A DNA stretch of 64,000 bases from a phage. The stretch lies in sequence record PX880100.1; one strand, 5' to 3'. Below are positions 22,364-63,886 of the stretch, in pieces (the stretch's first letter is position 1; each line of letters begins with the position of its first letter). Below the pieces are notes generated by a model that saw only the letters and a program-made list of their open reading frames with translations, did not search any database and was not told the DNA's origin. The translations under genes and the position numbers were made by a program.

Positions 22364-22387
22364 TACCCGCATGTAACATCTGAAGTA

Positions 22388-22421: not shown

Positions 22422-22459
22422 TATATAATGTAATTATAAAACTAACTAGGAGATTAAAC

Positions 22460-22978: not shown

Positions 22979-22999
22979 TATAATATATCTTATAAATTC

Positions 23000-23088
23000 G
23001 GAAGAATAGCATAACGGTATTGCAGCAGATTGCTAATCTGTCGGTTTGAAATATAGCCTTGTGGGTTCGATTCCCACTTCTTCCGCCA
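23000..23088 (+). tRNA. tRNA-Ser (anticodon GCU), long variable arm
   Basis: Perfect acceptor stem; T-arm GTGGG-TTCGATT-CCCAC; encoded CCA. Confidence 0.7.
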
Positions 23089-23094
23089 AATTCT

Positions 23095-23172
23095 GGTTCT
23101 CAAGCTCATATGGTATGAGCACCCAGCTCATAACTGGAAGGTACGTAGGTTCGAATCCTCGGGGAGCCACCA
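23095..23172 (+). tRNA. tRNA with CAU anticodon (Met/fMet/Ile2)
   Basis: Acceptor GGTTCTC/GGGAGCC; anticodon loop CTCATAA; weak T-stem. Confidence 0.5.
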
Positions 23173-23390
23173 ACTTAATTAGGGGATTACAAGTGGAATT
23201 ATACATAGTTTATGTTGTGTTTATTCAAGATAGAGAATACCCTGATGAATATAAAAAAGGATATAGGTTAGCCAGAGCTACCTCTGAAGTCCAAGCTATG
23301 GATAAAGTGGCAGATTATATGATTACGGTAGAAAACGTACACTATATCGACTACCTTGAGGCCTCAAAAGTAATTGACTAAGGAGACTAT

Positions 23391-23576
23391 ATGTCCAAGT
23401 TTCAAGAACTCAAGCAAGAGCTAGAAGAATGTGCCTGCCCTGAGTGTAGGGGAATTGGTGAAAGTTCTGATGCAGAAGCAGGAGATACTTTTTGCAATAT
23501 CTGGGTTTGCCCAAATTGCAATGGTACAGGTATTAATCCTAACTGTGGTATTTCTCTAGATATTGAAAGAGGGTAA
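23391..23576 (+). CDS. small zinc-ribbon protein
   Basis: CPECRG...CPNCNG paired CxxC. Confidence 0.45.
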   Translation: MSKFQELKQELEECACPECRGIGESSDAEAGDTFCNIWVCPNCNGTGINPNCGISLDIERG

Positions 23577-23677
23577 TATCTGTGAAACTAAAAGATTATT
23601 ATATTGGTTGGTTTGTGGGACTAGTAGTAGGATTTTCACTAGGCTATAATATGTATCAACTAATAAACTGATTACAC

Positions 23678-23754
23678 GGGGGTGTAATCGAATTGGCATA
23701 GGTACTGGACTTAAAATTCAGGTTTTGTGGGTTCGAATCCCACCACCCCTACCA
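23678..23754 (+). tRNA. tRNA, anticodon UAA (Leu-type) with short variable arm
   Basis: Acceptor GGGGGTG/CACCCCT; T-arm GTGGG-TTCGAAT-CCCAC; loop CTTAAAA. Confidence 0.5.
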
Positions 23755-23769
23755 AATTAAGGAAATAAG

Positions 23770-23937
23770 ATGTATAGACCTCCACCTCCGCCAACACGTC
23801 GTTCTAGAGAAGTTATCCTCATGGAATTGACTAAAAACTTCAAGGCAACTCTTGAAGATAGAGATTTAGGCACGGATGAAGACATTGATTTTATTTGTAG
23901 ACTATTAAAGATGAAACTGGAGAAACAACATGGCTAA
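23770..23937 (+). CDS. hypothetical small proline-rich protein (55 aa)
   Basis: Hand-translated; AAGGAAA upstream; stop overlaps next ATG. Confidence 0.4.
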   Translation: MYRPPPPPTRRSREVILMELTKNFKATLEDRDLGTDEDIDFICRLLKMKLEKQHG

Positions 23938-24136
23938 TCCTGAAATTACCGCACAACGTTTCATGCTTAAAGGCATGATTGCTGAAGCAGGTATGACTCA
24001 AGAGGTTGCAGACTTTCATAAGCAAATTCTTGATATTATAACTCTAGCTAAAGAGACTGGAGAAAAAGAGCACGCAGCAGCAATTATGGCTATATCTCTT
24101 ATTAGTCTAGACTTGGCTGAAGAATCTGGAGTTTAG
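23930..24136 (+). CDS. hypothetical protein
   Basis: ORF track. Confidence 0.4.
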   Translation: MANPEITAQRFMLKGMIAEAGMTQEVADFHKQILDIITLAKETGEKEHAAAIMAISLISLDLAEESGV

Positions 24137-24226
24137 CTCCTCCAAATAGAATTTTTAAAAATGTACTTGCCTTTTGCTTTAAATTTCTGATATAATAGTT
24201 ATATAAATTGATGAAGGAGTTAACTA

Positions 24227-24502
24227 ATGCAAAATCGTGTTATAGCAACTGGTATTGAAAGTGCAATCTGTAAATCCTGGGAAGGCTGGGAAGGTGAGAT
24301 TGAATGGCTTTATTTCTATGATGTAGAACTTCTGCCGGAAGTTAAAGCTAAATGTGTTGAAGCTGGAATGGCTCCAGATGCAAAAGCTGATATTGATATT
24401 TCAATGTCTGAACTTAAAGGCCGTGTAATTACTGTTAGTGATGAGGGTGAAGAAGTTTTCGAACTTCCATTCTCCTTAACTGTCACTCCTAAGTTCGACT
24501 AA
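24227..24502 (+). CDS. hypothetical protein
   Basis: ORF track; promoter cassette and AAGGAG upstream. Confidence 0.45.
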   Translation: MQNRVIATGIESAICKSWEGWEGEIEWLYFYDVELLPEVKAKCVEAGMAPDAKADIDISMSELKGRVITVSDEGEEVFELPFSLTVTPKFD

Positions 24503-24584
24503 CTAATACAGCACTGAGCAAGTTCTTTAAAATTTGACTTGCTCAGTGCCTTAAAACTTGGTATAATAGTTATCTAATTTGGAA

Positions 24585-24634
24585 ACATATTTAAAAGTGT
24601 TTAAACTAGTATTTGAATACTTTTAAATATGTTG
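24585..24634. repeat. perfect palindrome, 15-bp arms (AACATATTTAAAAGT / ACTTTTAAATATGTT)
   Basis: Read directly; between promoter and tRNA-Tyr. Confidence 0.8.
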
Positions 24635-24735
24635 GATTAGTATCGTAGAGGTAGCGAAGCAGACTGTAAATCTGCCGACTCGGAAGGGTCTCGGGTGGTT
24701 CGACTCCATCATCCATCATCCATCATCCAACACCA
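24631..24735 (+). tRNA. tRNA-Tyr (anticodon GUA) with 14-nt heptamer expansion before the 3' acceptor strand
   Basis: Anticodon stem GCAGA/TCTGC; T-arm GGTGG-TTCGACT-CCATC; ATCCATC x2 inserted before ATCCAAC-A-CCA. Confidence 0.5.
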
Positions 24736-24742
24736 AATTTAA

Positions 24743-24819
24743 GTCCTGTTAGACAAACTGGTAAAGTCACTACCCTTTCAAGGTAGGATTTGCGGGTTCG
24801 ATCCCCGCACAGGACGCCA
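24743..24819 (+). tRNA. tRNA-Glu (anticodon UUC)
   Basis: Perfect acceptor and anticodon stems; T-arm GCGGG-TTCGATC-CCCGC; CCA. Confidence 0.7.
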
Positions 24820-24827
24820 ATTTCTGC

Positions 24828-24904
24828 ATTCCTAGAGTGTTACTGGACAGCATGTCGGTCTCCAAAATCGTACGGTCTAGGTTCGAGTCCTAGTAGGTTT
24901 GCCA
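24828..24904 (+). tRNA. tRNA-Trp (anticodon CCA)
   Basis: T-arm CTAGG-TTCGAGT-CCTAG; loop CTCCAAA; acceptor has two U-U mismatches. Confidence 0.5.
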
Positions 24905-24910
24905 AAATTT

Positions 24911-24985
24911 GCACCTTTAGCTGAGATGGATTAGCGCTTGCCTGAAGAGCTTGAGAGGTTCGTTCGATACGAACAGGGTGCACCA
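24911..24985 (+). tRNA. tRNA-Phe (anticodon GAA)
   Basis: Acceptor GCACCTT/AGGGTGC; T-arm GTTCG-TTCGATA-CGAAC; anticodon stem imperfect. Confidence 0.5.
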
Positions 24986-25002
24986 AATTGAGGGGGCTGC
25001 TG

Positions 25003-25275
25003 ATGCATCCTGAAAACTTCTTTATTTACTGCGCTGATAAGTCGCTGAAACGTAGAATTAACAAAGTCTATCATTATCGTGCTAGTCAACAGCCTTATGT
25101 ATATGCTTTTGACGGTGATCACATTCCATTAGAACAATTATCTTGTGATTACATGATATTGAAGAACTTTGACGAGACAAAGATCTCAAGCGTTCATAAT
25201 CGACAGAATCCCTTAACGTGGAAATATAAGAAGAAAAAGAAAGGCATCAAATTCTTAAAAAATGTAGTTGCTTAG
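25003..25275 (+). CDS. hypothetical protein
   Basis: Track ORF trimmed to first ATG after GAGGGGG, clear of tRNA-Phe. Confidence 0.4.
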   Translation: MHPENFFIYCADKSLKRRINKVYHYRASQQPYVYAFDGDHIPLEQLSCDYMILKNFDETKISSVHNRQNPLTWKYKKKKKGIKFLKNVVA

Positions 25276-25307
25276 TTTCCAAAAGTTCTGTATAATAATT
25301 ACATAAA

Positions 25308-25550
25308 TTGAACTGGAGAAGCAACATGACAGAACAAGAATTGAATGAACGTAAGCTGGTAATGCTCCGCTTACTAAACATTTTCTCTGGTATGGATGGG
25401 GGTATTGACTTTGTTCATCTACGTTCTTTTGTAGAAGAAGCAGAAGGTGAATCTATCACTAAAATCCTTAAACATATGGGTTTACTATTAGATGCTGCTG
25501 GTGTAGCAACGGAATATAACCTCGAAGATCTACCGGAGCGTATTAAATGA
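25308..25550 (+). CDS. hypothetical protein
   Basis: ORF track; promoter cassette and GGAGAAG upstream. Confidence 0.45.
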   Translation: MNWRSNMTEQELNERKLVMLRLLNIFSGMDGGIDFVHLRSFVEEAEGESITKILKHMGLLLDAAGVATEYNLEDLPERIK

Positions 25551-25735
25551 AGAAGCCAAAAGCTAAATTAGTTAAGTTCGACTGTTGTGACACAGAAATC
25601 TTATTCACTAAGTTTGGTGAATTTAAGATGTGTGAATGTGGAACATGTGGTTATGATCATGGTGATGGATATTATTGCAGGACTCTTGGACCAGCAAATC
25701 TAATCCACTTTTCATGGCCGGAAGATAAAGAATAA
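25547..25735 (+). CDS. small Cys-rich protein
   Basis: CC..., CECGTCGYDHGDGYYC; overlapping start. Confidence 0.4.
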   Translation: MKKPKAKLVKFDCCDTEILFTKFGEFKMCECGTCGYDHGDGYYCRTLGPANLIHFSWPEDKE

Positions 25736-25737
25736 TT

Positions 25738-25812
25738 GCATCCTTGTCCGAGTGGCTTAGGTGACGGTCTGCAAAATCGTCTAGGTTGGTTCAATTCCAG
25801 CAGGGTGCTCCA
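25738..25812 (+). tRNA. tRNA-Cys (anticodon GCA)
   Basis: Acceptor GCATCCT/AGGGTGC; loop CTGCAAA; T-arm GTTGG-TTCAATT-CCAGC; weak D-stem. Confidence 0.55.
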
Positions 25813-25818
25813 AATTCA

Positions 25819-25901
25819 GGGTCGTTAGCCAAGCGGTTTGGCGGTGGACTGTTAATCCATGTCGAAAGACAACGTAGGTTCGAATCCTACACGGCCCGCC
25901 A
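25819..25901 (+). tRNA. tRNA, anticodon GUU (Asn-type) with 13-nt variable arm
   Basis: Good D-stem and anticodon stem; T-arm GTAGG-TTCGAAT-CCTAC; CCA. Confidence 0.55.
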
Positions 25902-26003
25902 AATTCTGTGTAGAGTTAAGTAAACCGGTAGCCAACCAGCTATCATTGCTGACATCGAATTCAGCCACAGATACCATTTTCATTAATAACTGAGGAAACA
26001 AGC

Positions 26004-26189
26004 ATGTCCAAGAATGTAATTGCGCAGCTAGAAGTTCATCGTGATAGCACTATCAACAATATTGAAGTTGAGAAGAAATACATCGAAGAACTTAAACATG
26101 ATATACTAGTAAGTCTCAACCGTCTTAATGTACGAAAAGAGTTTCTTAAAGAACTTAATGCAGCTATTGAAAAACTCAAAGCTGAGTAA
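26004..26189 (+). CDS. hypothetical protein
   Basis: ORF track; GAGGAAA upstream. Confidence 0.4.
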   Translation: MSKNVIAQLEVHRDSTINNIEVEKKYIEELKHDILVSLNRLNVRKEFLKELNAAIEKLKAE

Positions 26190-26198
26190 ATGAATTAT

Positions 26199-26275
26199 GC
26201 GACCGGGGCTGGCTTGGTAATGGTACTCCCCTGTCACGGGAGGGAATGTGGGTTCAAATCCCATCGGTCGCGCCA
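26199..26275 (+). tRNA. tRNA-Asp (anticodon GUC)
   Basis: Perfect acceptor and anticodon stems; T-loop TTCAAAT; CCA. Confidence 0.7.
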
Positions 26276-26292
26276 AATAAGGTAGGTTAGCT

Positions 26293-26451
26293 ATGGAACG
26301 TAGAGAGTTTACTCCAGAAGAGATAGAGCAGATAAAAGAATCTGCTACGAAAAATGCTAGAATATCTCTGTCACTAGAAGGTATCATTATTAGTGATGTA
26401 AACTTTGAAAAAATCAAAGCCATAGCTGATGAACTGGAAAAAGTAATTTAA
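26293..26451 (+). CDS. hypothetical small protein (52 aa)
   Basis: Hand-translated between tRNA-Asp and tRNA-Lys. Confidence 0.35.
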   Translation: MERREFTPEEIEQIKESATKNARISLSLEGIIISDVNFEKIKAIADELEKVI

Positions 26452-26452
26452 T

Positions 26453-26528
26453 ACATCCATAGCTCAATGGTTAGAGCTACCGCCTCTTAAGCGGAGGGTT
26501 CTAGGTTCAAGTCCTAGTGGGTGTACCA
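26453..26528 (+). tRNA. tRNA-Lys (anticodon CUU)
   Basis: Canonical D-arm TAGCTCAATGGTTAGAGC; T-arm CTAGG-TTCAAGT-CCTAG; CCA. Confidence 0.7.
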
Positions 26529-26554
26529 AACTAAACTAGCACGAGAAATATACT

Positions 26555-26902
26555 ATGCGTAATGCTAAAGAAGAGTTGTTACTTGCCTTAAAAAATACTA
26601 ATTCTGAAGTTAAGTGTATTAAAATAGAATTCGGGTATTATGGGGACAAAAAAGTTTGGGTATTACCTCTGGGGTATACAGAAGAAGATATTGGGGATTT
26701 TCTTAATAACCTAGACTTTGAGTATGATTCTGGTTATGGTGGACAACTACTTTATGGTAATGTATGGTTTGCCGATGGAACCTGGCTAGAACGTGGGGAA
26801 TATGATGGAGCTGAGTGGTGGGAATACAAGGCTACTCCAGCAATTCCAGAGGAATGCCGAACAATTAATGGTGAAGTAGATAATACTTTAAGGTTAAACT
26901 AA
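26555..26902 (+). CDS. hypothetical protein
   Basis: ORF track. Confidence 0.45.
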   Translation: MRNAKEELLLALKNTNSEVKCIKIEFGYYGDKKVWVLPLGYTEEDIGDFLNNLDFEYDSGYGGQLLYGNVWFADGTWLERGEYDGAEWWEYKATPAIPEECRTINGEVDNTLRLN

Positions 26903-27295
26903 TAAAATTTCAGTGCAGAACACGGAGCTAGCAATTCGGAAGTGCTGACTCATGATAAGCTGCCTATGTACTTGCAAAGCGGTCGTGTCCAAGACTCGGA
27001 CTCTTGCACTGAAAACAATCAAACATTCTAGCGTGGTTGATGGGGAAACCAGCTTGGCTAGGGCAGAAGCTCGTTCGATTCGAGTGAAAGAATGGTTCTC
27101 GTAAGTCCGCACAAGTGATAATAGGTTCGAGTCCTGTCTAGAATGACACTATAAAGTTTACTTATTATGTAGGTTCCGATAGATCGGCGGGTCTATTCTG
27201 GCATTTAAGAGAGGTCTCGCAAACTTCTTTGTCAGCCGTGGGGTTGGTAGCCTCCAGGTGGCCTACACAATAAGTAAATTTATTAAAAATTCATT

Positions 27296-27324
27296 TGCTA
27301 TTTCTCTTAATTATCTGTATAATA
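27296..27324 (+). promoter_or_regulatory. N25-like early promoter driving tRNA-Pro/tRNA-CAU
   Basis: TTGCTA-17 bp-TATAAT; followed by SD plus ATG with only 3 codons, then tRNAs. Confidence 0.6.
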
Positions 27325-27518
27325 TATTTTATAAAGTGAAGAGAAGGAAAGCAAAATGAAACACAAGATAGCTCAAGTTTTTATGGCATTATGGTGTATG
27401 CCAATAGCTATAACAGCATTTAATCTAGATACTTTTACTATAGAAGAAAAATGTATCGGATTAGTTAGTGGCTTTAGTATGCTTGGCTTATCTTTGTTGT
27501 GGTTGAAGAAATAATATT

Positions 27519-27596
27519 CTCCGTGTAGCTCAGTTTGGCCAGAGCGTTTCGTTTGGGGCGATAGGGTCGGGGGTTCAAATCCTCCCACGGAGACCA
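27519..27596 (+). tRNA. tRNA-Pro (anticodon UGG)
   Basis: Acceptor CTCCGTG/CACGGAG; D-arm GCTC...GAGC; T-loop TTCAAAT; CCA. Confidence 0.6.
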
Positions 27597-27602
27597 AACA
27601 AT

Positions 27603-27680
27603 TGCGGGTTAGATCTCTGGTAGAGATCGCTAGTCTCATAAGCTAGAAAGAGGTAGGTTCGATTCCTGCACCCGCTTCCA
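27603..27680 (+). tRNA. tRNA with CAU anticodon (Met/fMet/Ile2)
   Basis: D-stem GATC/GATC; anticodon stem CTAGT/GCTAG; T-loop TTCGATT; CCA. Confidence 0.6.
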
Positions 27681-27700
27681 TTTTAATAGAGGATTTCGAA

Positions 27701-27868
27701 ATGAAAGTATTTCGATTAGTAGTAAGTGACAAACGCTTAGGTAAGAATACATCAAAATCCTTACTTGCTCATTATGGTAGAAATTGGGATGAAGTAATGG
27801 CAGAGTTTAGTACTAATCACTCTTACTTGAAAGTTCACTCTATTAAAGAAGTATACAATGGTTACTAA
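27701..27868 (+). CDS. hypothetical small protein (55 aa)
   Basis: Hand-translated; SD-like upstream; ends 2 nt before tRNA-Lys. Confidence 0.4.
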   Translation: MKVFRLVVSDKRLGKNTSKSLLAHYGRNWDEVMAEFSTNHSYLKVHSIKEVYNGY

Positions 27869-27869
27869 T

Positions 27870-27948
27870 AGATCGCTAGCTCAATAGGTTTAGTAGCATC
27901 CGACTTTTAATCGGAAGGTTCTGGGTTCAAGTCCCAGGCGATCTACCA
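27870..27948 (+). tRNA. tRNA-Lys (anticodon UUU)
   Basis: Perfect acceptor AGATCGC/GCGATCT; anticodon stem TCCGA/TCGGA; T-loop TTCAAGT; CCA. Confidence 0.7.
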
Positions 27949-27952
27949 ATTT

Positions 27953-28026
27953 GCTCGGTTAGTTTAATGGGAGAACCCCGTCTTTACATGGCGGTTGAGA
28001 TAGTTCGATTCTATCACCGGGTACCA
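27953..28026 (+). tRNA. tRNA-Val (anticodon UAC)
   Basis: T-arm GATAG-TTCGATT-CTATC; anticodon stem CCGTC/GGCGG; CCA. Confidence 0.65.
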
Positions 28027-28045
28027 ATTAACTCAAAATAAGGAA

Positions 28046-28405
28046 TTGCAAATGCAATTATCAAGCAAGATTCAAGGTTATTTCGGTCATGTGACAATGG
28101 AGTTCGCTATCTCTAAAGGTTGGGACTTCGAACAAGATTTAGCTGAGTTCTACAAAGATATTGATCTGAACGTACCGTACATGGGACTTTCTACTGGTCA
28201 GGAGATCACAGAAGCCGATGTATTCAAGGCAAGTCAAGGTGAGGTAACACCTAGTTTTGCCGAGTTCTGGTTAGGCATTACGTTAAAAGAAGATGCACCA
28301 GATAGTGGTGTACTAATGTCTAGTATGCACTCTGGAAGTTCCGATTACCTTTTCATTAGCGATGTTAAGGAAATACAAGAAGTCTGCAAAAATGTACTTG
28401 CTTGA
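28046..28405 (+). CDS. hypothetical protein
   Basis: ORF track; AAGGAAT upstream. Confidence 0.45.
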   Translation: MQMQLSSKIQGYFGHVTMEFAISKGWDFEQDLAEFYKDIDLNVPYMGLSTGQEITEADVFKASQGEVTPSFAEFWLGITLKEDAPDSGVLMSSMHSGSSDYLFISDVKEIQEVCKNVLA

Positions 28406-28664
28406 TGCTTAATTTCTTGTTATAATATTTATATAAATTGATGAGGAGAAATCCTCATCATAGTTCACTAAGGTATTAGCTCGACCTAGGACTGGCTGCC
28501 AAAAAGCACGATCCCTACGATTCGGGAGAAGTTCTAGATTGGTCCACTAGATTCAGCGGCAACTGAATAGTGTATTGGGTTTGCGAGATGACGTAGTTCC
28601 TTCCGCTCTAAGCGAAGGTGCTGTAGTTACGCCGAGCTAATAGCCTTAGTAAACTAAAGAATTT

Positions 28665-28743
28665 GGGGAATGGGTCTGCATGGAGTGGACACCTCGCTTG
28701 CACCGAGGACATCAGAACGGTTCGATTCCGTTATTCTCCACCA
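28665..28743 (+). tRNA. tRNA-Ala (anticodon UGC)
   Basis: Anticodon stem CCTCG/CGAGG; T-arm AACGG-TTCGATT-CCGTT; CCA. Confidence 0.65.
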
Positions 28744-28748
28744 AATAC

Positions 28749-28825
28749 GCGTGATTGATGGAATTGGCATACATACCGTCCTTAGAAGTCGGGTTTTGAG
28801 GGTTCGAATCCCTTGTCACGCACCA
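28749..28825 (+). tRNA. tRNA, anticodon UAG (Leu-type) with short variable arm
   Basis: Perfect acceptor GCGTGAT/GTCACGC; T-loop TTCGAAT; loop CTTAGAA. Confidence 0.5.
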
Positions 28826-28937
28826 AATTTGATGGTCAGAGTAAATTAAACCTACTATCTCGGTTGAGCTGTTTTAATGGGTTCGAATCCCAGCGAGGCG
28901 TAACTGCCTGGTGTGATAGAGGCATCATCTTATTATT

Positions 28938-29028
28938 GGAAGAGCAAATCGAATTGGCGACGAAAACCGCTTGGAAAGTGGCTGACTGGTAAAACGGCTT
29001 GAGAGTTCAAATCTCTCCTCTTCCGCCA
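28938..29028 (+). tRNA. tRNA-Ser (anticodon GGA), class II
   Basis: Perfect acceptor GGAAGAG/CTCTTCC; T-arm GAGAG-TTCAAAT-CTCTC; long variable arm; CCA. Confidence 0.6.
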
Positions 29029-29040
29029 AACAATTTATAT

Positions 29041-29135
29041 GGTAGGTCAATCCAATGGCTGGCGTGGGACTCCGACTTGAAATCGGTTGATCGTAGTGAT
29101 ACGGTGTAAGGGTTCGATCCCCTTACCTACCTCCA
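29041..29135 (+). tRNA. tRNA-Ser (anticodon UGA), class II
   Basis: Perfect acceptor GGTAGGT/ACCTACC; T-arm AAGGG-TTCGATC-CCCTT; 20-nt variable arm; CCA. Confidence 0.6.
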
Positions 29136-29501
29136 AATCTTGAAGTATGCCGGAATCGGTAGACGGGGCTGCCTAAAAGGTTTATAGGGAACATCCACTC
29201 CCTGCAACATACCCCATAAAGCGGCTGAGATAAATGGTCTATCTCGTGAAGGTTCAAGTCCTTCTGCTTCTTGATACATCAATGGCTCAAAGTGTAACGG
29301 CGCTATTTGATGCGCTTAGTAAGACTTCCCCGACATGCGTTCGGGAGTAAGCTGCTAAGGCTAGAGTAGAAGAGTTTCTGAGAGCCGCCACAATTGAAGA
29401 TTCGTACTCGTCTTGAGCTGCGTGCAATAGGAGATAACTTGATTAGTATTCTAGAACATGCTAATTGAGGAAGGTTTCGCTAACCCTGCGAGTTTTCAAT
29501 T

Positions 29502-29578
29502 GTGGCTATATCATAATTGGTTAATGATCCTGATTGTGAATCAGGCCTATGTGGATTCGAATTCCACTAGCCACCCCA
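29502..29578 (+). tRNA. tRNA-His (anticodon GUG)
   Basis: Perfect acceptor and anticodon stems; T-arm GTGGA-TTCGAAT-TCCAC; CCA. Confidence 0.7.
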
Positions 29579-29603
29579 AATTAACTTAAATAGGAAATAA
29601 AAT

Positions 29604-29798
29604 ATGGCTGATTTCTGCAAACAATGCTCCATTGATATGTGGGGCAGAGATACTGGTGATCTTTCTGGTTTGATTACAGAAGCTGAAGTTAAAGAAGGCT
29701 ACGGTGCTGTTGTGATTTGCGAGGGATGCGGAGTTATTCGAGTAGATCATGAAGGCAAACGTTTGGAAGAATCTGAGCCAACAACAATTTTTCCGTAG
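29604..29798 (+). CDS. small zinc-ribbon protein
   Basis: CKQC...CEGC; AGGAAAT upstream. Confidence 0.45.
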   Translation: MADFCKQCSIDMWGRDTGDLSGLITEAEVKEGYGAVVICEGCGVIRVDHEGKRLEESEPTTIFP

Positions 29799-29810
29799 AA
29801 TAAAAATTAT

Positions 29811-29886
29811 TGGGATGTAGATCAATTGGCAGATCGTCGGCCTCTGACTCCGAAGGCTCCACGTTCGATCCGTGGCATCCCAGCCA
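29811..29886 (+). tRNA. tRNA-Gln (anticodon CUG)
   Basis: Perfect acceptor TGGGATG/CATCCCA; D-stem GATC/GATC; T-arm CCACG-TTCGATC-CGTGG; CCA. Confidence 0.65.
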
Positions 29887-29892
29887 AATAAT

Positions 29893-29968
29893 TGGAGAGT
29901 AGTGTAACGGTTAGCACAACGGCCTTTGACTCCGTTAATGGTAGGTTCGATTCCTCCTTCTCCAGCCA
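29893..29968 (+). tRNA. tRNA-Gln (anticodon UUG)
   Basis: Paralogous anticodon arm to previous tRNA; T-loop TTCGATT; CCA. Confidence 0.6.
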
Positions 29969-29976
29969 AATAATAA

Positions 29977-30052
29977 GCGGTTAAGCACACGGGTTGTGTC
30001 GCAGGCCTTCCAAGCCTCGCTGAGTAGGGTTCGATTCCCTCTAGCCGCTCCA
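29977..30052 (+). tRNA. tRNA-Gly (anticodon UCC)
   Basis: Acceptor GCGGTTA/TAGCCGC; loop CTTCCAA; T-loop TTCGATT; CCA. Confidence 0.55.
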
Positions 30053-30068
30053 ACTTTAAGGGGACATT

Positions 30069-30290
30069 ATGCACGTTTTTGAGTTTCGTAATAAAAGTAC
30101 CGATAAACGAGTTATTGTTATCGGGGAAACATACCGAGCATACGAACAAACTGACGGCTCTGTTATCCTGAATGACGAAAAAGGAGGTTTTAGCTTTTAT
30201 CCCAAAGAAACTTACGAAGAATTTCGTACAAAGTTTCTTCTACCAGACTGGCTAGAAGTAGCGCAGCAACGAGAACCCGAAGATGGCTGA
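30069..30290 (+). CDS. hypothetical protein
   Basis: ORF track; SD-like AAGGGGA upstream. Confidence 0.45.
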   Translation: MHVFEFRNKSTDKRVIVIGETYRAYEQTDGSVILNDEKGGFSFYPKETYEEFRTKFLLPDWLEVAQQREPEDG

Positions 30291-30447
30291 TAACCTAAAA
30301 GTCAAGATCGATAAACAAAAGAAACGTGTCGAAGTAGAGATTGGTGAAGAACGTGTAGCCTTCACCTTTGAATTTCTACAACAAATGGCAATGACAGTTA
30401 TGACTGATAAGTCTCCTGTTATTGAAAAAGAAATCCCGTTGAAATAA
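30283..30447 (+). CDS. hypothetical small protein (54 aa)
   Basis: Hand-translated; ATG overlaps upstream stop (ATGGCTGA). Confidence 0.35.
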   Translation: MADNLKVKIDKQKKRVEVEIGEERVAFTFEFLQQMAMTVMTDKSPVIEKEIPLK

Positions 30448-30456
30448 CGGGCTATC

Positions 30457-30531
30457 GCTCCTAAAGCATTGTTGGCGATGCAGTTGCCTTGTAAGCATCT
30501 GAACCGGGTTCGATTCCTGGTGGGAGCACCA
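30457..30531 (+). tRNA. tRNA-Thr (anticodon UGU)
   Basis: D-stem GCAT/ATGC; T-arm CCGGG-TTCGATT-CCTGG; CCA. Confidence 0.6.
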
Positions 30532-30546
30532 AATTTAAAAATTCAT

Positions 30547-30575
30547 TTGCTTTCTCTCTTATTTCTTGTTATAAT
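30547..30575 (+). promoter_or_regulatory. N25-like early promoter
   Basis: TTGCTT-17 bp-TATAAT, then ATAAATTAATGAGAGGG. Confidence 0.65.
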
Positions 30576-30605
30576 ATTTATATAAATTAATGAGAGGGAA
30601 GCCAA

Positions 30606-30899
30606 ATGAAACGTTATCTTTCTGTTGTGTTCCAAACTGGTGGTCAGCGCTATACTTACGAATTTCCTGGCTCTTGGAAAGTCAAAGAAGGTGATCAAGT
30701 AGTTGTATTAACACCGCGTGACGGGTATAAGGTAGTAACGGTTAAGCAAGTATTTTCAAAAGACTATGAACCGTCTAAGTCTATTAACTATAAGATGATT
30801 CATGGTGTAGTTCGTCAAGTACCACGAGCGGAAGTCGAAATCAAAGTAGATAAAGATGATAAACTTAAATATACCTCTTGCATAGACGAGTTGCTATAA
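30606..30899 (+). CDS. hypothetical protein
   Basis: ORF track; promoter and SD upstream. Confidence 0.5.
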   Translation: MKRYLSVVFQTGGQRYTYEFPGSWKVKEGDQVVVLTPRDGYKVVTVKQVFSKDYEPSKSINYKMIHGVVRQVPRAEVEIKVDKDDKLKYTSCIDELL

Positions 30900-31105
30900 T
30901 GAGGATTACTTTTACAGAAAAGATTATGAGTAATGGTGTTATGATCATTACCGCATGGGACAGTAATCAGTGGTGTAGTGTTTCAGGTATTAAGCCTGAA
31001 GAACAAACACTAGAAAATATCTCAAAGATTAAGCGAAGAATGGCAGAACGTGCACGACTTCCAGGTGCACCTAGAAATGGCAAACGTTCTGCTGTGAAAT
31101 GTTAA
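30878..31105 (+). CDS. hypothetical protein
   Basis: ORF track; start uncertain. Confidence 0.35.
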   Translation: MHRRVAIMRITFTEKIMSNGVMIITAWDSNQWCSVSGIKPEEQTLENISKIKRRMAERARLPGAPRNGKRSAVKC

Positions 31106-31106
31106 T

Positions 31107-31183
31107 GCTTCGGTAGCTTAGCGATCTAAAGCACTCGGCTGATAACCGAGAGATCGGGGGTTTAAATCCCTCCCGGAGTACCA
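31107..31183 (+). tRNA. tRNA-Ile (anticodon GAU)
   Basis: Perfect anticodon stem CTCGG/CCGAG; T-loop TTTAAAT; CCA. Confidence 0.6.
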
Positions 31184-31279
31184 AATTTAGGAATTAAGAC
31201 TATGCGTCCAGGAAAGTTTAGAAAAGCTAATTGGTCTAAAGAGTATAAAGAATACTTACTTAGTCTAGTAAAACATAAC

Positions 31280-31355
31280 AGTTAGTTGGCAGAGTGGTTA
31301 TGCACCTCCTTCATACGGAGCGACTACAGTGGTTCAAATCCACTACTAACTACCA
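31280..31355 (+). tRNA. tRNA with CAU anticodon (Met/fMet/Ile2)
   Basis: Perfect acceptor AGTTAGT/ACTAACT; T-arm AGTGG-TTCAAAT-CCACT; CCA. Confidence 0.6.
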
Positions 31356-55749: not shown

Positions 55750-57414
55750 ATGATTATTTCCGCAGAAAAACAAACCGTTATCCTGAAAATGGCCGCTGAC
55801 TTTAATTTCTATGGTAAACGTCTGCGCGCTACTAAACTGGAAGTCTGCGACGATATTTCGAAAGCGGTATACGATACTACTAAACACTCCACCGCCATTT
55901 GTGATTGGTTGGAAGCAAATAAGCCAGCGAAACCAAAAGCGGCAAAAGTAGCAAAAGCCATTAAAAACGATGAGCGCCCAGAAGCGGCTGGGATTGTTTC
56001 TAGCACGGTTGAGCAATGGGAAGTAAAACAAGGTAAACGCTTTATTATTACGTCGATTCAGAATAATACTTTCCCGCATAAAAACTTTTTAGCCTCACTG
56101 GAGCAATTTGCTAAATATATCGGTGCTGATTTGCTTGTTTCTAAGTATATTTATAATAAAAACGGCTTCCAGAATGGAGAAGGTGCGGATGGAATCAAAT
56201 ATGATTCCGCTTTTGATAAATATATTTGCAGCAAAAACGTGTTTTTAAATAACCGCCGTTTCGCTTTCATGGCTGAAATTAATGTTTTGCCAACCGCAGA
56301 TTATCCGCTTTCTGGATTCGCAGAAACTGCAACGGCTTTAAATATTGAAGGTCTGGCAATTGGTCACGCTAAAATTACCGCTGAAAGTGTGCCAGCTTTG
56401 AAAGGTGAAGTAGTGCGCCGCATGTATTCAACCGGAACGGCAACGCTCAAAAACTACATTCAGCAGAAAGCAGGACAGAAAGCGGAAGCACTTCATAACT
56501 TCGGTGCGCTGATTGTTGAGTTCGACGACGACGGGGAATTTTTTGTTCGCCAGCTTGAAACAATGGACGAAAGCGGGGTGTTTTATGATCTGAATGTTTG
56601 CGCTACTCCTGCCGGATGCTATGAAACATCGGGGCATGTTTTAGGCTTGCAATACGGCGATATTCACGCCGAAAAATTAGATGACGATTGCGCCGCTGCG
56701 TCATGGGCTGGCGAAAATAGCTTGCTTGATATTCTTAAACCAAAATATCAGTTTGTGCACGACGTTCACGATTTTACATCGCGCAATCATCATAACCGCG
56801 CGTCGGGTGTATTCCTAGCAAAACAGTACGCCGCCGGACGTGATAAAGTTCTGGATGATCTTATCGATACCGGTCGCGTGCTGGAGTCGATGGAACGTGA
56901 TTTTAGTCAAACGATCATCGTAGAATCTAATCACGATTTGGCGCTATCCCGTTGGCTTGATGATCGTAATGCTAACATCAAAGACGATCCCGCGAACGCG
57001 GAACTGTATCACCGCCTGAATGCTGCAATCTATGCGGCAATCGGTGAACACGACGAAACGTTTAACGTGCTAGATTATGCGTTGCGCAAGGTTGCAGGTT
57101 GCGAGTTTAACGCCATTTTTCTGACCACTGACCAATCTTTCAAGATTGCAGGCATTGAATGCGGCGTACACGGTCACAACGGCATTAACGGCAGCCGTGG
57201 CAATCCTAAGCAGTTTAAGAAATTGGGCAAGTTAAACACCGGACACACTCACACTGCCAGCATTTACGGCGGCGTATATACCGCTGGCGTTGCTGGTAGT
57301 CTGGATATGGGTTACAACGTGGGCGCGTCAAGCTGGACGCAAACGCATTTAATTACCTATGCAAACGGTCAGCGCACTTTGATTGACTTTAAGAATGGTA
57401 AATTCTTTGCGTAA
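55750..57414 (+). CDS. A1: A1-like pre-early protein (metallophosphatase-like)
   Basis: 554 aa; GDIH and ESNHD metallophosphatase-like motifs; context with A2 and dmp. Confidence 0.6.
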   Translation: MIISAEKQTVILKMAADFNFYGKRLRATKLEVCDDISKAVYDTTKHSTAICDWLEANKPAKPKAAKVAKAIKNDERPEAAGIVSSTVEQWEVKQGKRFIITSIQNNTFPHKNFLASLEQFAKYIGADLLVSKYIYNKNGFQNGEGADGIKYDSAFDKYICSKNVFLNNRRFAFMAEINVLPTADYPLSGFAETATALNIEGLAIGHAKITAESVPALKGEVVRRMYSTGTATLKNYIQQKAGQKAEALHNFGALIVEFDDDGEFFVRQLETMDESGVFYDLNVCATPAGCYETSGHVLGLQYGDIHAEKLDDDCAAASWAGENSLLDILKPKYQFVHDVHDFTSRNHHNRASGVFLAKQYAAGRDKVLDDLIDTGRVLESMERDFSQTIIVESNHDLALSRWLDDRNANIKDDPANAELYHRLNAAIYAAIGEHDETFNVLDYALRKVAGCEFNAIFLTTDQSFKIAGIECGVHGHNGINGSRGNPKQFKKLGKLNTGHTHTASIYGGVYTAGVAGSLDMGYNVGASSWTQTHLITYANGQRTLIDFKNGKFFA

Positions 57415-58239: not shown

Positions 58240-58974
58240 ATGAATAAAGCTATTATGAATATTTCCCGCAGCTTCCCGCATATTTCCCGCGTTATGATTT
58301 GGGATTTAGACGGCACTATCGTTAATTCTTTCCATCGTGTAGCGCCTTGCTTTGATAGTGAGGGCAATTTAGATTTAAATAAGTATAAAAATGAAGCGTG
58401 TAAACATCATTTAATAATGCAGGATTCTTTATTGCCATTGGTTGAATACATGCGCCAATGTATGAATGACGCAAATACTTTAAACATTATTTGTACCGCT
58501 CGACTAATGAGCAAATCAGATTATTACTTCCTGCGTAAACAAGGTCTGCGCGGTCGTGGTAATAGTAATATCCGCGTGTTTTCCCGTGATACACTACACA
58601 AATATTTTGAAGCTGATAAAGTTAGCGAGATATACCACAGTAAGGACGCAGTTTATAAATCTTATTATTTTGAATTATTTAAACAGTTATATCCGAACGC
58701 TGATTTTACAATGATTGATGATCATAAAGGTGTATTATCAGCGGCGGCATCATACGGATTTAAAACGCTGGACGCACAAGCCGTTAATGATATTCTATCA
58801 ATCGGCGTGGCATTGATAGGTGAAACCTTTATTGATGAATCTCTCGACGATGATAATGATTATCAGTTCCTAGCTGATCGTTTGAAATTATGCTGGGAAG
58901 GTATGACCGAGGAAGAACGCGCAGAATATAGTTGCAGCCCGCAACAATATATTGAGAAATTAAAAGTTGCGTAA
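58240..58974 (+). CDS. dmp: 5'-deoxyribonucleotidase (HAD-like)
   Basis: 244 aa; N-terminal MIWDLDGTIVNSF (DxDGT); pre-early context. Confidence 0.65.
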   Translation: MNKAIMNISRSFPHISRVMIWDLDGTIVNSFHRVAPCFDSEGNLDLNKYKNEACKHHLIMQDSLLPLVEYMRQCMNDANTLNIICTARLMSKSDYYFLRKQGLRGRGNSNIRVFSRDTLHKYFEADKVSEIYHSKDAVYKSYYFELFKQLYPNADFTMIDDHKGVLSAAASYGFKTLDAQAVNDILSIGVALIGETFIDESLDDDNDYQFLADRLKLCWEGMTEEERAEYSCSPQQYIEKLKVA

Positions 58975-59125
58975 TAATTAAAGTTGAAATAGTCACGGTG
59001 TGTAATGATAACATGCCGTGACTATTAGCTTGCTAAGTACCGGGCGGTAATGAGACTCATTCTCATCTGGGAGGCCACTGGACACACCTCCATGTGTAAT
59101 CTTATGAAATTTGGCAAAAGTCAAA

Positions 59126-59371
59126 TTAGCGCATAGAAGGGTCATCAAACCTGTGTTCTGGTCTGAACTCACGGAATCTCTTCCGCGACGCCCGAGATCC
59201 ATCTGACCACTCCCGCTCAAACTCCGCACGTTTCTCGTCAAACTTCCGCTCCCTTTCCGCAATCTCCCGAGACACTCCCGCAATATATTTACGATGCTTG
59301 TTAATTGCCGCAGTTGTCCCGAAAACTCCCGCGAGTATCCCGATAATAAAAGCAATTACAATACTAAACAT
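59126..59371 (-). CDS. hypothetical membrane-anchored protein
   Basis: N-terminal TM helix then charged tail. Confidence 0.4.
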   Translation of the reverse strand: MFSIVIAFIIGILAGVFGTTAAINKHRKYIAGVSREIAERERKFDEKRAEFEREWSDGSRASRKRFREFRPEHRFDDPSMR

Positions 59372-59558
59372 CTAATTCCCTCTCAATTTGCAGAATACGG
59401 GTGCTATCACAACGTTGGAGTAATACTAGCTTTTCTAGAGCAACTTGTTGTTGTTTTACCTGAGCTTCTAGAGTTTTTAGGCGAATGTACACAATACGAG
59501 AGGCAATAAAGATTATCCAGACTAATATTACCATTAGTGTAATTGCTACTTCCATCAT
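59364..59558 (-). CDS. hypothetical membrane-anchored coiled-coil protein
   Basis: N-terminal TM helix. Confidence 0.4.
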   Translation of the reverse strand: MMEVAITLMVILVWIIFIASRIVYIRLKTLEAQVKQQQVALEKLVLLQRCDSTRILQIERELDV

Positions 59559-59967
59559 TTACGTTTCCCCGATAGTAAGGTTTCGATTCTAGCTAAATGA
59601 TTATCTAAAATACACTGCCCAATAATCACAATCCCTAGTAGTGCAATAATTACCCATTCCATTAGATCCACCCCGCCATAGCTGCTAACCAAAAACCTAT
59701 GAAGATTAGGAATAATACAAAACCAAATCCGTAAATATTAACCCACGCTTCGTATACTTCTCCGCGTCTGTTCTTTCTTTTATTTGACATATCTTTCGTA
59801 CTCCCGTAAATGTGGTATTTTAAATTATTTTATAATTTGTGCATAACCAACCATGCTTGTGACTTCCTAGAAGGACTTCTACTTTTCTTACATAGTGGTT
59901 TCTGCCAATACACCATCCAAAAAATAAAAAATTTAGTTTACTTGGATGTCTTTTTGCTTTATACTAA

Positions 59968-60234
59968 TTACAGGTAGTTAGATTGCTCTAGTTTAAATTT
60001 ACAATCCCCGTATTTAAGATCAAACTGACTGAGATCCCACCACCCAAATTTAGTACGGAGTTGTACTACTGGAAAGCGATCTCCCTTAATACGAACTTTT
60101 TGAACCTTGAGGCCATAATGTTCTTCTCCCGCACCACCAAAAGATTTTACAAATCCAGTACAAAATGGTTTGGGAGCAGGTGCACAACCAGATAACATAA
60201 CTGCGGCAACTAGTGCAATCACAAACTTTTTCAT
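59968..60234 (-). CDS. llp: Llp-like lipoprotein (receptor-blocking, superinfection exclusion)
   Basis: Signal peptide with lipobox LSGC; divergent from adjacent RBP gene as in T5 llp/oad. Confidence 0.65.
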   Translation of the reverse strand: MKKFVIALVAAVMLSGCAPAPKPFCTGFVKSFGGAGEEHYGLKVQKVRIKGDRFPVVQLRTKFGWWDLSQFDLKYGDCKFKLEQSNYL

Positions 60235-60265
60235 ATTTATCTCTCCATTTCTAATTTATGAGTAT

Positions 60266-60294
60266 ATTATAGCAAAATAGAGAGATAAAAGCAA
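60266..60294 (-). promoter_or_regulatory. early-type promoter for llp
   Basis: Minus strand TTGCTT-17 bp-TATAAT then CATAAATTAG. Confidence 0.55.
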
Positions 60295-60319
60295 ATACAT
60301 TTTTATAATAGGAGATTAT

Positions 60320-62077
60320 ATGGGTTTTTTCGCTGGTAAATATAGCGATGGTAAGACCGTACTATCTTTAAATACTGAATCTGGTGGTGACATTAATCGT
60401 CACTATAGTCCAAATGCCAATAGTATTTTTCATAGTGATATGCCATTTGTCCTAGTTGATGGTACTTATGAGTCTGGGTTAGGTGATGCCGGTAATGGGT
60501 TTTTTGTATGTCAAATGCCCGCTGACATAATAAATATTAAATCTAACGATCCTGGTAGAGTTATACTAACTGCTATTGAGATAAATGGTACTCACAGAGC
60601 CTTTCTTAATGGTACTCAGAGTAAGGTAGGTCAAACTATAGTTGCTACTCAGGCAGATCCTTTTAGATCTTTTGCTAGCGTTTCCCAGACTAGTGGGTTC
60701 GCTTTTGGTAATAGCCTGGCATCTGGCACATATAACTATAATCCATCTATAGGGCATGAAGAATCTATCTCTAGAAATGGTACTGGTGGAACCACCCTAC
60801 ATAGTACGTACCATGGTATAGTTAGGCCAGGTGCAGGGGCTCCAGTAGGGGTTACTGTTGCAGAAGCTTTTGCACAGTTGGGTTTTCCTACTAATAGTAG
60901 TACAGTACCTATAGATGGGAATAACCAAAATTACTGGGATCCAGGATGGATGTCTCCTTTAGGATCAGCACACAGAGGGCACGATTGGTTCTATGTTTGT
61001 AACTCTAACATACGGGGGTATGGTGGGGTAAGACAAGGTCTTCCTGGTAGTGTAAATACTATGTATCATGATGGGGGTAATAGATTTGTTTGTAGGGGTT
61101 CTACAACTAATTTAGCTAATCAATCTGGTGATTCTACAATACTACAAGATTGGTATAACATAACTCCTACTAAGGTTATTTGGTACGTTTTGAATTTAAG
61201 ATACTCAAATGGTGGTATGAGTATCTCTGGTAATCCTTTTACTGGTTCAGATATTCTTATATCTCCTTCTAATTTCATAATTAAAGGGGTTAGTCTTCCC
61301 AATACTGGATACAAGTTTATTAACCAGAACGCTTTCGGTAACTTAGGTTATAGACCAGATATGGAATATATTGGAAATAATGCAGCGTACACTGGGGCCT
61401 TTGGGGATACCACCGCAAGGTGTGAACTTGTAGGTTCTAGTAACGGGAGTTTATGGTCTCCTGTGGACTATGGGGGGGCTAAGTCTCAAATTAGTATTTA
61501 CAAATTCGGAGCTGGTAAGCAATGGTATGTAAACTCCAATGATAATACTATCGGTAATGAACACGGGGTTGTTTGGGGACCATCAGCAGTTCCATTACGA
61601 CTTTTTGGTGGAAATGTAGGTAGTTCTTATATGGGAGATGATATTACTCCCAGCTACCCGGGAACAGGAGATAGATACGTTGGTTTATCAACTATTGGGC
61701 TAGGTATACCGGGTGGCAATGCTACAGTAATTCTTACCACTGAAGTTATATCAGGTAATCTTAACTGTGCAGGTGTTCCTGCTAATACATGGAATAACGG
61801 TGTGTTTCAAGTGCAGGGAAGAAGAGCATATAGTTATAGTAATGGAGACGCGATATTCCACCAGATTTTAACACTACCAGTAGGGTATTTAGTACCTTTT
61901 CATACTACATCTGCTTTTAGATACACACCTAACAATGCCCTAAGTAGAAATAGTTTTATATACACTGCTAAAAATCTGGGGAACGGAAATGTAGAGTTAG
62001 GGGTAGTTATGCACGTAAGTTTAGGTAGTGCAGTTTTTCTACCTAGATTAAGAGTAACAGTTCAACGCCTTACCTAA
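60320..62077 (+). CDS. receptor-binding tail protein (pb5/Oad-like)
   Basis: 585 aa, Gly/Asn/Ser/Thr-rich; MGFFAGK start and QRLT end recalled as pb5-like; adjacent llp. Confidence 0.7.
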
Positions 62078-62087
62078 AGGAGGAAAT

Positions 62088-62570
62088 ATGGCAAATGATG
62101 TATTAGTACCAGATCTTATGTCCCCTGAAGGGATGGATGTGATTGAAGCTTATTTACAGTGCGGAAGTGATGTGCCTTCTGCCGCACGTAGTCTTGGAAT
62201 GTCCGAAATTGCTTTCCGAGATATTATGAATCGTAGCGAAGTTAAGAACTACTTAAACGATATTTTTATGGAAAGTGGATTCCGTAACAGAGATCGTTTG
62301 TTCGGTGTTCTAGATGAAGTTATTAAACGTAAGCTAGAGGAACTAGAAGAAACTGGCATGGGTTCTGACCAGGATATTATGGATATTCTCTGGAAGGCAC
62401 ATAAAATGAAGATGGAAGAGATGAAAATGATGGTGGAACTAGAAAAAGCTAAAGCTGCCGTACGAGCTCCAGCTAACCAGACCAATATCCAGAATAACAT
62501 TATTGCTGGAGCTGGGGATCAAAACTACATGGACTTAATTACTTCCCTAGCTACTGGAGGTAAGAAGTAA
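62088..62570 (+). CDS. putative terminase small subunit (HTH)
   Basis: HTH-like [17 protein letters not shown]; immediately upstream of terminase large subunit. Confidence 0.45.
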
Positions 62571-63886
62571 TGGAAGTATCAAGACCCTACGTTAACACAG
62601 TAGATGTTATTGATTTCGGAATAGATAAACGTTTCTTTCGTCTACCTGTTTCGGGAATACTAGCACAAGAAGGTATTACACCTAATGGTCCTCAAATAGC
62701 AATCATCAATGCTTTAGAAGATCCTAGACATCGTTTTGTAACGGCGTGTGTGTCACGCCGTGTAGGCAAATCCTTTATAGCATATACACTTGGGTTCCTA
62801 AAATTGTTGGAACCTAATGTGAAAGTGTTAGTAGTTGCTCCCAACTACTCACTGGCCAACATCGGATGGTCTCAGATTCGTGGTCTTATTAAGAAGTATG
62901 GCCTACAAACCGAACGTGAAAACGCTAAAGATAAAGAAATAGAGTTGGCTAATGGTTCTTTGTTTAAACTAGCTTCTGCGGCGCAGGCTGACTCCGCAGT
63001 TGGACGTTCATATGACTTTATCATCTTTGATGAGGCGGCAATTTCCGATGTAGGTGGTGATGCCTTTAGAGTTCAGTTGCGTCCTACCCTAGATAAACCA
63101 AACTCTAAGGCTCTATTTATCTCTACTCCTCGCGGTGGTAACTGGTTTAAAGAGTTTTATGCCTATGGATTTGATGATACATTGCCTAACTGGGTATCTA
63201 TTCATGGTACATATCGTGATAACCCACGTGCTGACCTGAATGACATCGAAGAAGCACGTCGCACAGTTAGTAAAAACTACTTCCGCCAAGAATACGAGGC
63301 TGACTTCTCTGTATTCGAAGGTCAGATCTTTGATACCTTTAATGCTATCGATCATGTTAAAGATCTCAAAGGTATGCGTCACTTCTTTAAAGATGATGAA
63401 GCATTCGAAACGTTGCTTGGTATTGACGTTGGCTATCGTGATCCTACAGCAGTTCTTACTATTAAGTACCACTATGATACAGATACCTACTATGTATTAG
63501 AAGAGTACCAGCAGGCGGAGAAAACCACAGCTCAGCATGCTGCGTATATTCAGCACTGTATAGATCGTTATAAAGTTGATCGTGTTTTTGTTGACTCTGC
63601 AGCAGCTCAGTTCCGCCAGGACTTAGCTTATGAACATGAAATTGCATCAGCTCCAGCTAAAAAATCTGTCCTAGATGGTCTAGCGTGTTTGCAAGCATTA
63701 TTCCAACAGGGTAAAATTATTGTAGATGCCTCATGTTCCTCATTAATTCATGCATTGCAGAACTATAAGTGGGACTTCCAAGAAGGTGAAGAGAAATTAT
63801 CACGTGAAAAACCACGTCATGATGCTAACTCTCACCTTTGTGATGCGCTCCGCTATGGAATTTACTCTATTTCCCGTGGTAAATAA
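62570..63886 (+). CDS. terL: terminase large subunit
   Basis: 438 aa; Walker A-like RRVGKS, Walker B IIFDEAA, C-terminal nuclease-like acidic residues. Confidence 0.8.
   Translation: MEVSRPYVNTVDVIDFGIDKRFFRLPVSGILAQEGITPNGPQIAIINALEDPRHRFVTACVSRRVGKSFIAYTLGFLKLLEPNVKVLVVAPNYSLANIGWSQIRGLIKKYGLQTERENAKDKEIELANGSLFKLASAAQADSAVGRSYDFIIFDEAAISDVGGDAFRVQLRPTLDKPNSKALFISTPRGGNWFKEFYAYGFDDTLPNWVSIHGTYRDNPRADLNDIEEARRTVSKNYFRQEYEADFSVFEGQIFDTFNAIDHVKDLKGMRHFFKDDEAFETLLGIDVGYRDPTAVLTIKYHYDTDTYYVLEEYQQAEKTTAQHAAYIQHCIDRYKVDRVFVDSAAAQFRQDLAYEHEIASAPAKKSVLDGLACLQALFQQGKIIVDASCSSLIHALQNYKWDFQEGEEKLSREKPRHDANSHLCDALRYGIYSISRGK

Follow-up and report, generated by a model that had tools for sequence, protein, structure and literature searches.

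Which outer-membrane receptor is recognised by the phage behind sequence record PX880100.1, and is the small lipoprotein encoded divergently beside its receptor-binding protein (RBP) the matching receptor blocker? These questions were taken up in the window, that is, the whole stretch of 64,000 nucleotides that was analysed. We consider it very probable that positions 59968-62077 form the BF23-type host-recognition module of a Tequintavirus (a T5-like siphophage), consisting of an RBP that would bind BtuB and a lipoprotein, Llp, that would block BtuB. The module has the following parts:

60320-62077, plus strand: hrs/oad, receptor-binding tail-tip protein of the pb5 family, BF23-Hrs/BtuB clade, 585 aa (open reading frame and homology)
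59968-60234, minus strand: llp, BF23-type receptor-blocking lipoprotein (superinfection exclusion/lytic conversion), precursor 88 aa, mature form 72 aa (identity to BF23 Llp)
60184-60234, minus strand: predicted Llp signal peptide and lipobox, MKKFVIALVAAVMLSG followed by Cys17, predicted to be lipidated (Pfam LPAM_1)
60235-60319, unstranded: divergent control region of 85 bp between llp and hrs (conserved with BF23 and T5)

In the list of open reading frames (ORFs) of the window, hrs starts with ATG and runs through 585 uninterrupted codons (60320-62077, plus strand); a Shine-Dalgarno sequence, AGGAG, lies at 60310-60314, 5 nt 5' of the start codon. When 50,697 phage records were searched with tblastn, the RBP had matches in 541, with at least 80% of the query covered in 523; by the same search it is present at 95% identity or more in ∼96 public phage records and at 90% or more in 105. 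The annotated RBP of Salmonella phage vB_Sen_TUMS_E3 has the same amino-acid sequence (100% identity); EC148, MM-1, MM-2, IME178 and the BASEL phage DaisyDussoix come next with RBPs at 99.0-99.3%. A tier of BtuB-phage proteins follows at 56-73%: DT571/2 (73%), D1G hrs (72.5%), EPS7 (69%), BF23 Hrs (67%) and phiR2-01 (56%). Identity to the FhuA-type proteins is 29.5% for T5 and 30.7% for S131, and to the FepA-type protein of S124 it is 27.7%.

A Pfam scan of the RBP matched 0 families, and PHROGs supplied the family assignments where Pfam gave no RBP model. PHROG 4815, ‘receptor binding tail protein’, covers the RBP from end to end (E 6.4e-274; query 1-585, profile 1-650 of 650). Comparison with T5 pb5 by BLASTP gives E 2e-56 over the full length, with 30% identity and 95 gap positions, and phmmer against the solved T5 pb5 chain 8b14_B gives E 1.6e-50. 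The solved relatives found in a PDB search are solely T5 pb5 in its FhuA complexes (8b14_B and 8a8c_B). By every sequence-level measure of membership, the protein is a full-length homologue of pb5, one of the pb5/Oad/Hrs tail-tip proteins of Markadamsvirinae and within them part of the BtuB subclade. Its fold is expected to be like that of the solved pb5, the sequence homology to that protein being unambiguous.

Conservation along the protein is uneven. In bins of 50 residues, identity to T5 pb5 is 50% at residues 1-50, 18-26% at 101-250, 50% at 301-350 and 44% at 401-450, and the last 35 residues are 34% identical, with the terminal QRLT invariant. The pattern is one of several conserved blocks (residues 1-100, ∼283-335 and ∼386-430) amid low identity, rather than two good ends flanking an unrelated centre. 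Presumably these blocks make up the scaffold of the protein and its attachment end for pb4, the straight fibre protein. An earlier note on this DNA, written from the sequence before any searches, had described a pb5-type protein shorter than that of T5 (585 against ∼640 aa), with ends matching T5 pb5 and a divergent centre. The family assignment is borne out by the PHROG 4815 and 8b14_B matches and the length difference by the 640 aa of T5 pb5; near-identity to T5 pb5 throughout, named in the note as what would speak against it, is absent at 30% identity. Its picture of the ends and centre holds in part: the N-terminus does reach 50% and the centre is low, but similarity is low throughout and conserved blocks lie in the centre as well.

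Two stretches of the RBP are candidates for contact with the receptor:

60590-61129, plus strand: RBP stretch of highest variability (residues ∼91-270), putative receptor-contact region (sliding-window identity and alignment to T5 pb5 L1/L2)
61895-61969, plus strand: C-terminal variable patch (residues ∼526-550), putative receptor-contact loop (alignment to T5 pb5 L4)

Sliding windows starting at residues 91-256 have identities of 10-33% to T5, 30-70% to BF23 and 53-83% to DT571/2, and the C-terminal patch has deletions relative to both BF23 (7 aa) and T5. [quoted passage not shown] T5 pb5 residues 115 and 170 align with RBP residues 114 and 172, and the L4 residues 570-590 map to RBP residues ∼529-538; in this alignment the positions equivalent to L1, L2 and L4 coincide with the least conserved patches of the RBP. 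By analogy with T5, the variable stretches at ∼91-270 and ∼526-550 would be receptor-contact loops.

Deposited relatives of this RBP are unevenly annotated. In the records KY677846 (phiLLS), OQ383620 (MET_P1_100_107) and OM386657 (ESCO30) the RBP is mislabelled ‘super-infection exclusion protein’ or ‘receptor-blocking protein’. In EPS7 (CP000917) it is unannotated and the match falls into three pieces, suggesting frameshifts. OR846838 (Listeria phage LM 4-11-1) and other records named as ‘Listeria’ or ‘Campylobacter’ phages are short and unannotated and carry the RBP at 97.6% identity; such records with an enterobacterial T5-like RBP are probably contaminating or mis-assigned sequences.

The receptor assignment draws on phages whose receptors have been determined. 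DaisyDussoix (Bas31, MZ501058) is given in the BASEL S5 Table with LPS/O-antigen as primary receptor and BtuB as terminal receptor; the BASEL receptors were found by experiment on single-gene knock-out strains (BASEL, 2021), and three RBP clusters predict the receptor according to the legend of the BASEL S3B Fig. The RBP examined here differs from that of DaisyDussoix at six positions (S52A, D56N, A68S, E182K, S244N and E414G), and it is because of this 99% identity that receptor use is transferred from one to the other. For DT57C and DT571/2, mutations inactivating btuB confer resistance (Golomidova et al. 2016, PMC4728585), and the database record of the DT571/2 RBP notes BtuB binding. BF23 is the classical BtuB phage (PMC10644984). 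The RBP groups with these BtuB-phage proteins (56-99.0%) and apart from the FhuA and FepA types of T5, S131 and S124 (28-31%). By identity to characterised proteins, we predict with high confidence that its receptor is BtuB.

Could the RBP nevertheless use another outer-membrane receptor, whether FhuA, FepA or an undescribed transporter? Its putative contact loops are indeed quite unlike those of BF23 Hrs: in windows starting at residues 151-181 the two proteins share only 30-37%, and the loop equivalent to L4 is 7 aa shorter than in BF23. Yet the same loops are 70-83% identical to those of DT571/2, a phage whose dependence on BtuB was established with btuB mutants, the DaisyDussoix protein is listed as BtuB-dependent at 99.0% identity, and the adjoining Llp is of the BtuB-blocking type. 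Specificity for FhuA or FepA was rejected because those clades share just 28-31% identity with the RBP. We give a receptor other than BtuB barely any chance. That hrs might be a chance ORF or a decaying copy yielding no functional RBP has a negligible probability. It is refuted by the conservation data. Against it stand the uninterrupted 585 codons with their Shine-Dalgarno sequence, the full-length alignment to 523 phage records, the wholly covered PHROG profile and the identity to the annotated RBP of TUMS_E3, an isolated plaque-forming phage; nothing was found in its favour. BtuB is retained as the predicted receptor in what follows.

The second component, Llp, begins with a signal peptide and the lipobox LSG/CA; LPAM_1, at residues 1-18 (E 5e-5), was its sole match in the Pfam scan. 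Under the +2 sorting rule of the Lol pathway, the Ala at this position implies that the predicted lipoprotein is sorted to the outer membrane. Llp is identical to the BF23 ‘receptor blocking protein’ at 88 of 88 residues. The DT571/2 protein differs at A11T alone; this substitution lies within the signal peptide, so the mature 72-aa Llp is identical to the one cloned by Golomidova et al. In that study, leaky expression of the Llp of DT57C/DT571/2 made BF23 and the DT phages plate more than 100-fold less well and had no effect on T5 (PMC4728585). A role for Llp in blocking infection by BtuB phages, as published for a protein of identical mature sequence, is supported on this basis. The earlier note had suggested both that the receptor differs from the FhuA of T5 and that Llp is the cognate partner of the RBP. 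The first suggestion agrees with the 99.0% identity to the RBP of the BtuB-listed DaisyDussoix and the 28-31% identity to the FhuA and FepA types; the second gains from the 100% identity of Llp to that of BF23, a BtuB-blocking protein.

Beyond these close relatives, Llp falls into PHROG 1119, ‘Cor superinfection exclusion protein’ (E 1.8e-26). Llp occurs at 95% identity or more in 181 records of the phage collection; a version at 60-80%, that of Epseptimavirus, is found in 213. T5 Llp shares 30% over 67 aa in a pairwise comparison (E 1e-4) and 18% in the multiple alignment. The two cysteines besides the lipidated one (Cys25 and Cys78 of the precursor, Cys9 and Cys62 of the mature protein) align with cysteines of T5 Llp, of EPS7, of phiR2-01 and of the Cor protein of phage grams; since T5 Llp has a disulphide between Cys11 and Cys58 (PMC9586334), a Cys9-Cys62 disulphide would by analogy form in the mature protein. 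A PDB search with Llp returned chance-level matches alone (E of at least 0.2), and the ‘Llp-like’ protein of the FepA-type phage S124 gave no meaningful alignment with the Llp set and was left aside.

The two genes diverge from the 85-bp control region and are embedded in a conserved gene order, with these neighbours:

62088-62570: terS, small terminase subunit (PHROG 3802)
62570-63886: terL, large terminase subunit
58240-58974: dmp, 5'-deoxynucleotidase
55750-57414: A1, pre-early gene

The succession A1, dmp, four small transmembrane ORFs, llp (minus strand), RBP (plus strand), terS and terL is that of T5, BF23, DaisyDussoix and TUMS_E3, and the sign of the GC skew flips at ∼60000-60250, which fits divergent transcription. 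In the control region the minus strand reads TTGCTT-17 nt-TATAAT, from 60294 down to 60266, a sequence ∼31 nt before the llp start codon and a plausible candidate for an early llp promoter. Where it aligns with BF23, the intergenic region shows a single mismatch, the blocks AAGCAA and TATTATA are invariant in this phage, BF23, DaisyDussoix and T5, and divergent promoters between llp and the RBP gene are annotated in the records of T5 and BF23. A generic sigma-70 promoter and terminator scan of 58900-62700 called none in the llp-hrs intergenic region; promoter-like sites numbered 7 over this interval against a shuffled mean of 11.9, that is, fewer than in shuffled sequence. The scan missed the putative llp promoter because its -35 hexamer matches at just 3 of 6 positions, and the proposal therefore rests on the conservation with T5 and BF23 and on the annotations of those records.

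Four tiny ORFs lie between dmp and llp on the minus strand (59126-59790), occupying the slots of T5.162-T5.159, to each of which the T5 record assigns a single transmembrane domain:

59126-59371, minus strand: ORF of 81 aa, with a sub-threshold LapA_dom match
59364-59558, minus strand: ORF of 64 aa
within 59555-59692, minus strand: ORF of ∼35 aa
59662-59790, minus strand: ORF of 42 aa

Their PHROG matches are 6447, 5851, 6369 and 8596, families for the most part without an assigned function. In the same interval DaisyDussoix has one extra small ORF and TUMS_E3 annotates fewer.

A1 and dmp directly adjoin the region of llp, the RBP gene and the terminase genes, and are preceded by ∼55 kb of early genes and tRNAs; from this placement, the sequence is reversed with respect to the canonical T5 orientation. 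Probably the assembly retains the ∼10-kb terminal repeat as one copy, collapsed or permuted, and the repeat boundary should, by analogy with T5 and BF23, lie at ∼58975-59125. A tRNA cluster at 21307-31355 (plus strand) comprises 24 genes and serves 19 amino acids, of which Ser, Leu, Lys, Met and Gln have two genes each; DaisyDussoix is likewise listed with 24 tRNAs (BASEL S5 Table), as is typical of T5-like genomes.

At the nucleotide level, the window is 94-99% identical to BF23 and DT571/2 over llp and the intergenic region (59920-60319). At the hrs start codon identity abruptly falls, staying at 46-83% as far as ∼62019, and is back to 87-98% from 62020 into terS. The hrs ORF behaves as a swappable cassette between flanks of 87-99% identity, which is mildly notable. 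Within the RBP, windows starting at residues 91-166 and 511-556 are DT57C-like (70-90% to DT571/2 against 30-73% to BF23), and those starting at 316-391 are BF23-like (83-93% to BF23 against 60-83% to DT571/2). Judged from these windows, the protein is a mosaic between the BF23 and DT57C Hrs types. The structure seen here repeats, and slightly extends, the account of Golomidova et al., who placed a recombination point between hrs and llp and termed Hrs ‘mosaic’ (PMC4728585). On a larger scale, the llp-hrs module is 99.1% identical in nucleotides to TUMS_E3 and 97.2% to DaisyDussoix, whereas the last 25 kb (39001-64000) reach at most ∼92-94% to any phage record; this difference marks the genome as mosaic, as is usual for T5-like phages, and its identity to deposited genomes may be under the 95% that delimits a species.

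The cassette boundary bears on whether the two proteins are truly partners. It runs exactly between the two genes: at the start codon of hrs, the 97-99% nucleotide identity to BF23 and DT571/2 gives way to 75-77%, which means that llp and hrs have different histories. One might then suppose that the RBP binds BtuB while Llp is a functionally unmatched leftover of recombination, the changes that it induces in BtuB failing to stop binding by this RBP. The same situation has, however, been tested for DT57C, where an Llp with identical mature sequence excluded BF23 as well as the DT phages although their Hrs proteins diverge. Moreover, Llp is kept in 181 records, against 105 carrying this RBP type at 90% identity or more; its presence in more records than this one RBP type points to selection on its pairing with several Hrs types. 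An unmatched Llp has only a slim chance of being correct, and we prefer to read Llp and the RBP as a functional pair.

A further reading of the mosaic starts from four observations: the loop parts of the RBP are DT57C-like, its core is BF23-like, its gene is a cassette flanked by near-identical sequence, and one invariant Llp is common to at least two other Hrs types. On this reading, the Hrs types might contact different sets of extracellular loops of BtuB, or track the BtuB alleles of E. coli and Salmonella, with one periplasmic Llp neutralising all of them allosterically. We regard this as speculative and rather unlikely; if it were true, the locus would be a natural experiment on escape from receptor-loop mutations.

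The mechanism that we propose for the paired reading is as follows. Hrs/Oad would sit at the tip of the straight central tail fibre and bind BtuB, the outer-membrane vitamin-B12 transporter, of E. coli or Salmonella irreversibly. Its loops at residues ∼91-270 and ∼526-550 would insert into the extracellular lumen of the transporter, by analogy with T5 pb5 and FhuA, and binding would trigger tail opening and DNA ejection. From the early gene llp, a mature outer-membrane lipoprotein of 72 aa would then be made that inactivates BtuB as a receptor in the infected cell; such a block would prevent superinfection and stop the loss of progeny on cell debris. In the solved FhuA-Llp complex, T5 Llp binds the periplasmic face of FhuA together with a non-native conformation of its plug, and EL7 and EL8 fold inward over the pb5 site, a ‘reverse allostery’ that van den Berg et al. 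(2022) propose for other TonB-dependent transporters also (PMC9586334). By analogy, the probable site of Llp on BtuB is the periplasmic face and plug, and its binding would fold the extracellular loops of BtuB inward. PDB searches found no solved structure of a BtuB-type Hrs or a BF23-type Llp, and so both mechanisms are extrapolated from T5 proteins (∼30% identity for the RBP, 18-30% for Llp); the structural details of BtuB binding and blocking should be read as analogies of this kind.

Comparison with known systems places the locus among close relatives. The RBPs of vB_Sen_TUMS_E3 (PP941779, XCO69228.1) and DaisyDussoix (MZ501058, QXV77375.1) likewise have 585 aa, the former with zero substitutions and the latter at 99.0%; TUMS_E3 has the same neighbours llp, terS and terL, and in DaisyDussoix llp is divergent upstream and terS and terL lie downstream. 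BF23 Hrs (OR083247, WLW40759.1) has in common with the RBP its family, genomic slot, receptor class (BtuB) and an identical Llp partner. It has 595 aa and is 67% identical overall, rising to 82-88% in bins over residues 1-100 and 301-450, and relative to it the RBP has deletions of 3 aa and 7 aa. The BF23 Hrs system was reportedly described by Mondigler et al. in 1996 and 2006. The Hrs of DT57C/DT571/2 (KM979355) belongs to the BtuB clade at 73% identity, with 70-90% in the windows of the putative contact loops, and the mature Llp is identical.

T5 has the divergent arrangement of llp, RBP and terminase genes too, and its Llp is a small lipoprotein with both cysteines conserved; it differs in its pb5, which has 640 aa, FhuA as receptor and 30% identity, and in its Llp, which is 18-30% identical. 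The Cor lipoproteins of T1-like phages (Drexlerviridae) fall into PHROG 1119 with Llp, and the cysteine pair aligns. The Cor protein of phage grams (positions 3501-3728 of L010) is 34% identical to Llp and is encoded beside a tail-tip/RBP locus. Here the similarity is distant and the phage family another, and characterised Cor proteins act on FhuA (PMC9586334). The relationship of Llp and Cor was noted by van den Berg et al. (PMC9586334), with which the PHROG 1119 placement agrees.

The RBP/Llp module is already known and brings no new receptor specificity: the exact RBP has been deposited and annotated, its receptor class determined and its Llp tested. Module, receptor and exclusion partner are all in the literature for BF23 (Mondigler 1996, 2006), DT57C (Golomidova 2016) and the BASEL collection (2021). 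The interest that remains is structural, in the BtuB-Hrs and BtuB-Llp complexes and in whether the three Hrs types that go with one Llp contact BtuB differently. In practice, the phage can be annotated as BtuB-dependent. From this dependence one would expect loss of btuB to confer resistance at once to this phage, other BtuB phages and E colicins, a point relevant to the composition of phage cocktails.
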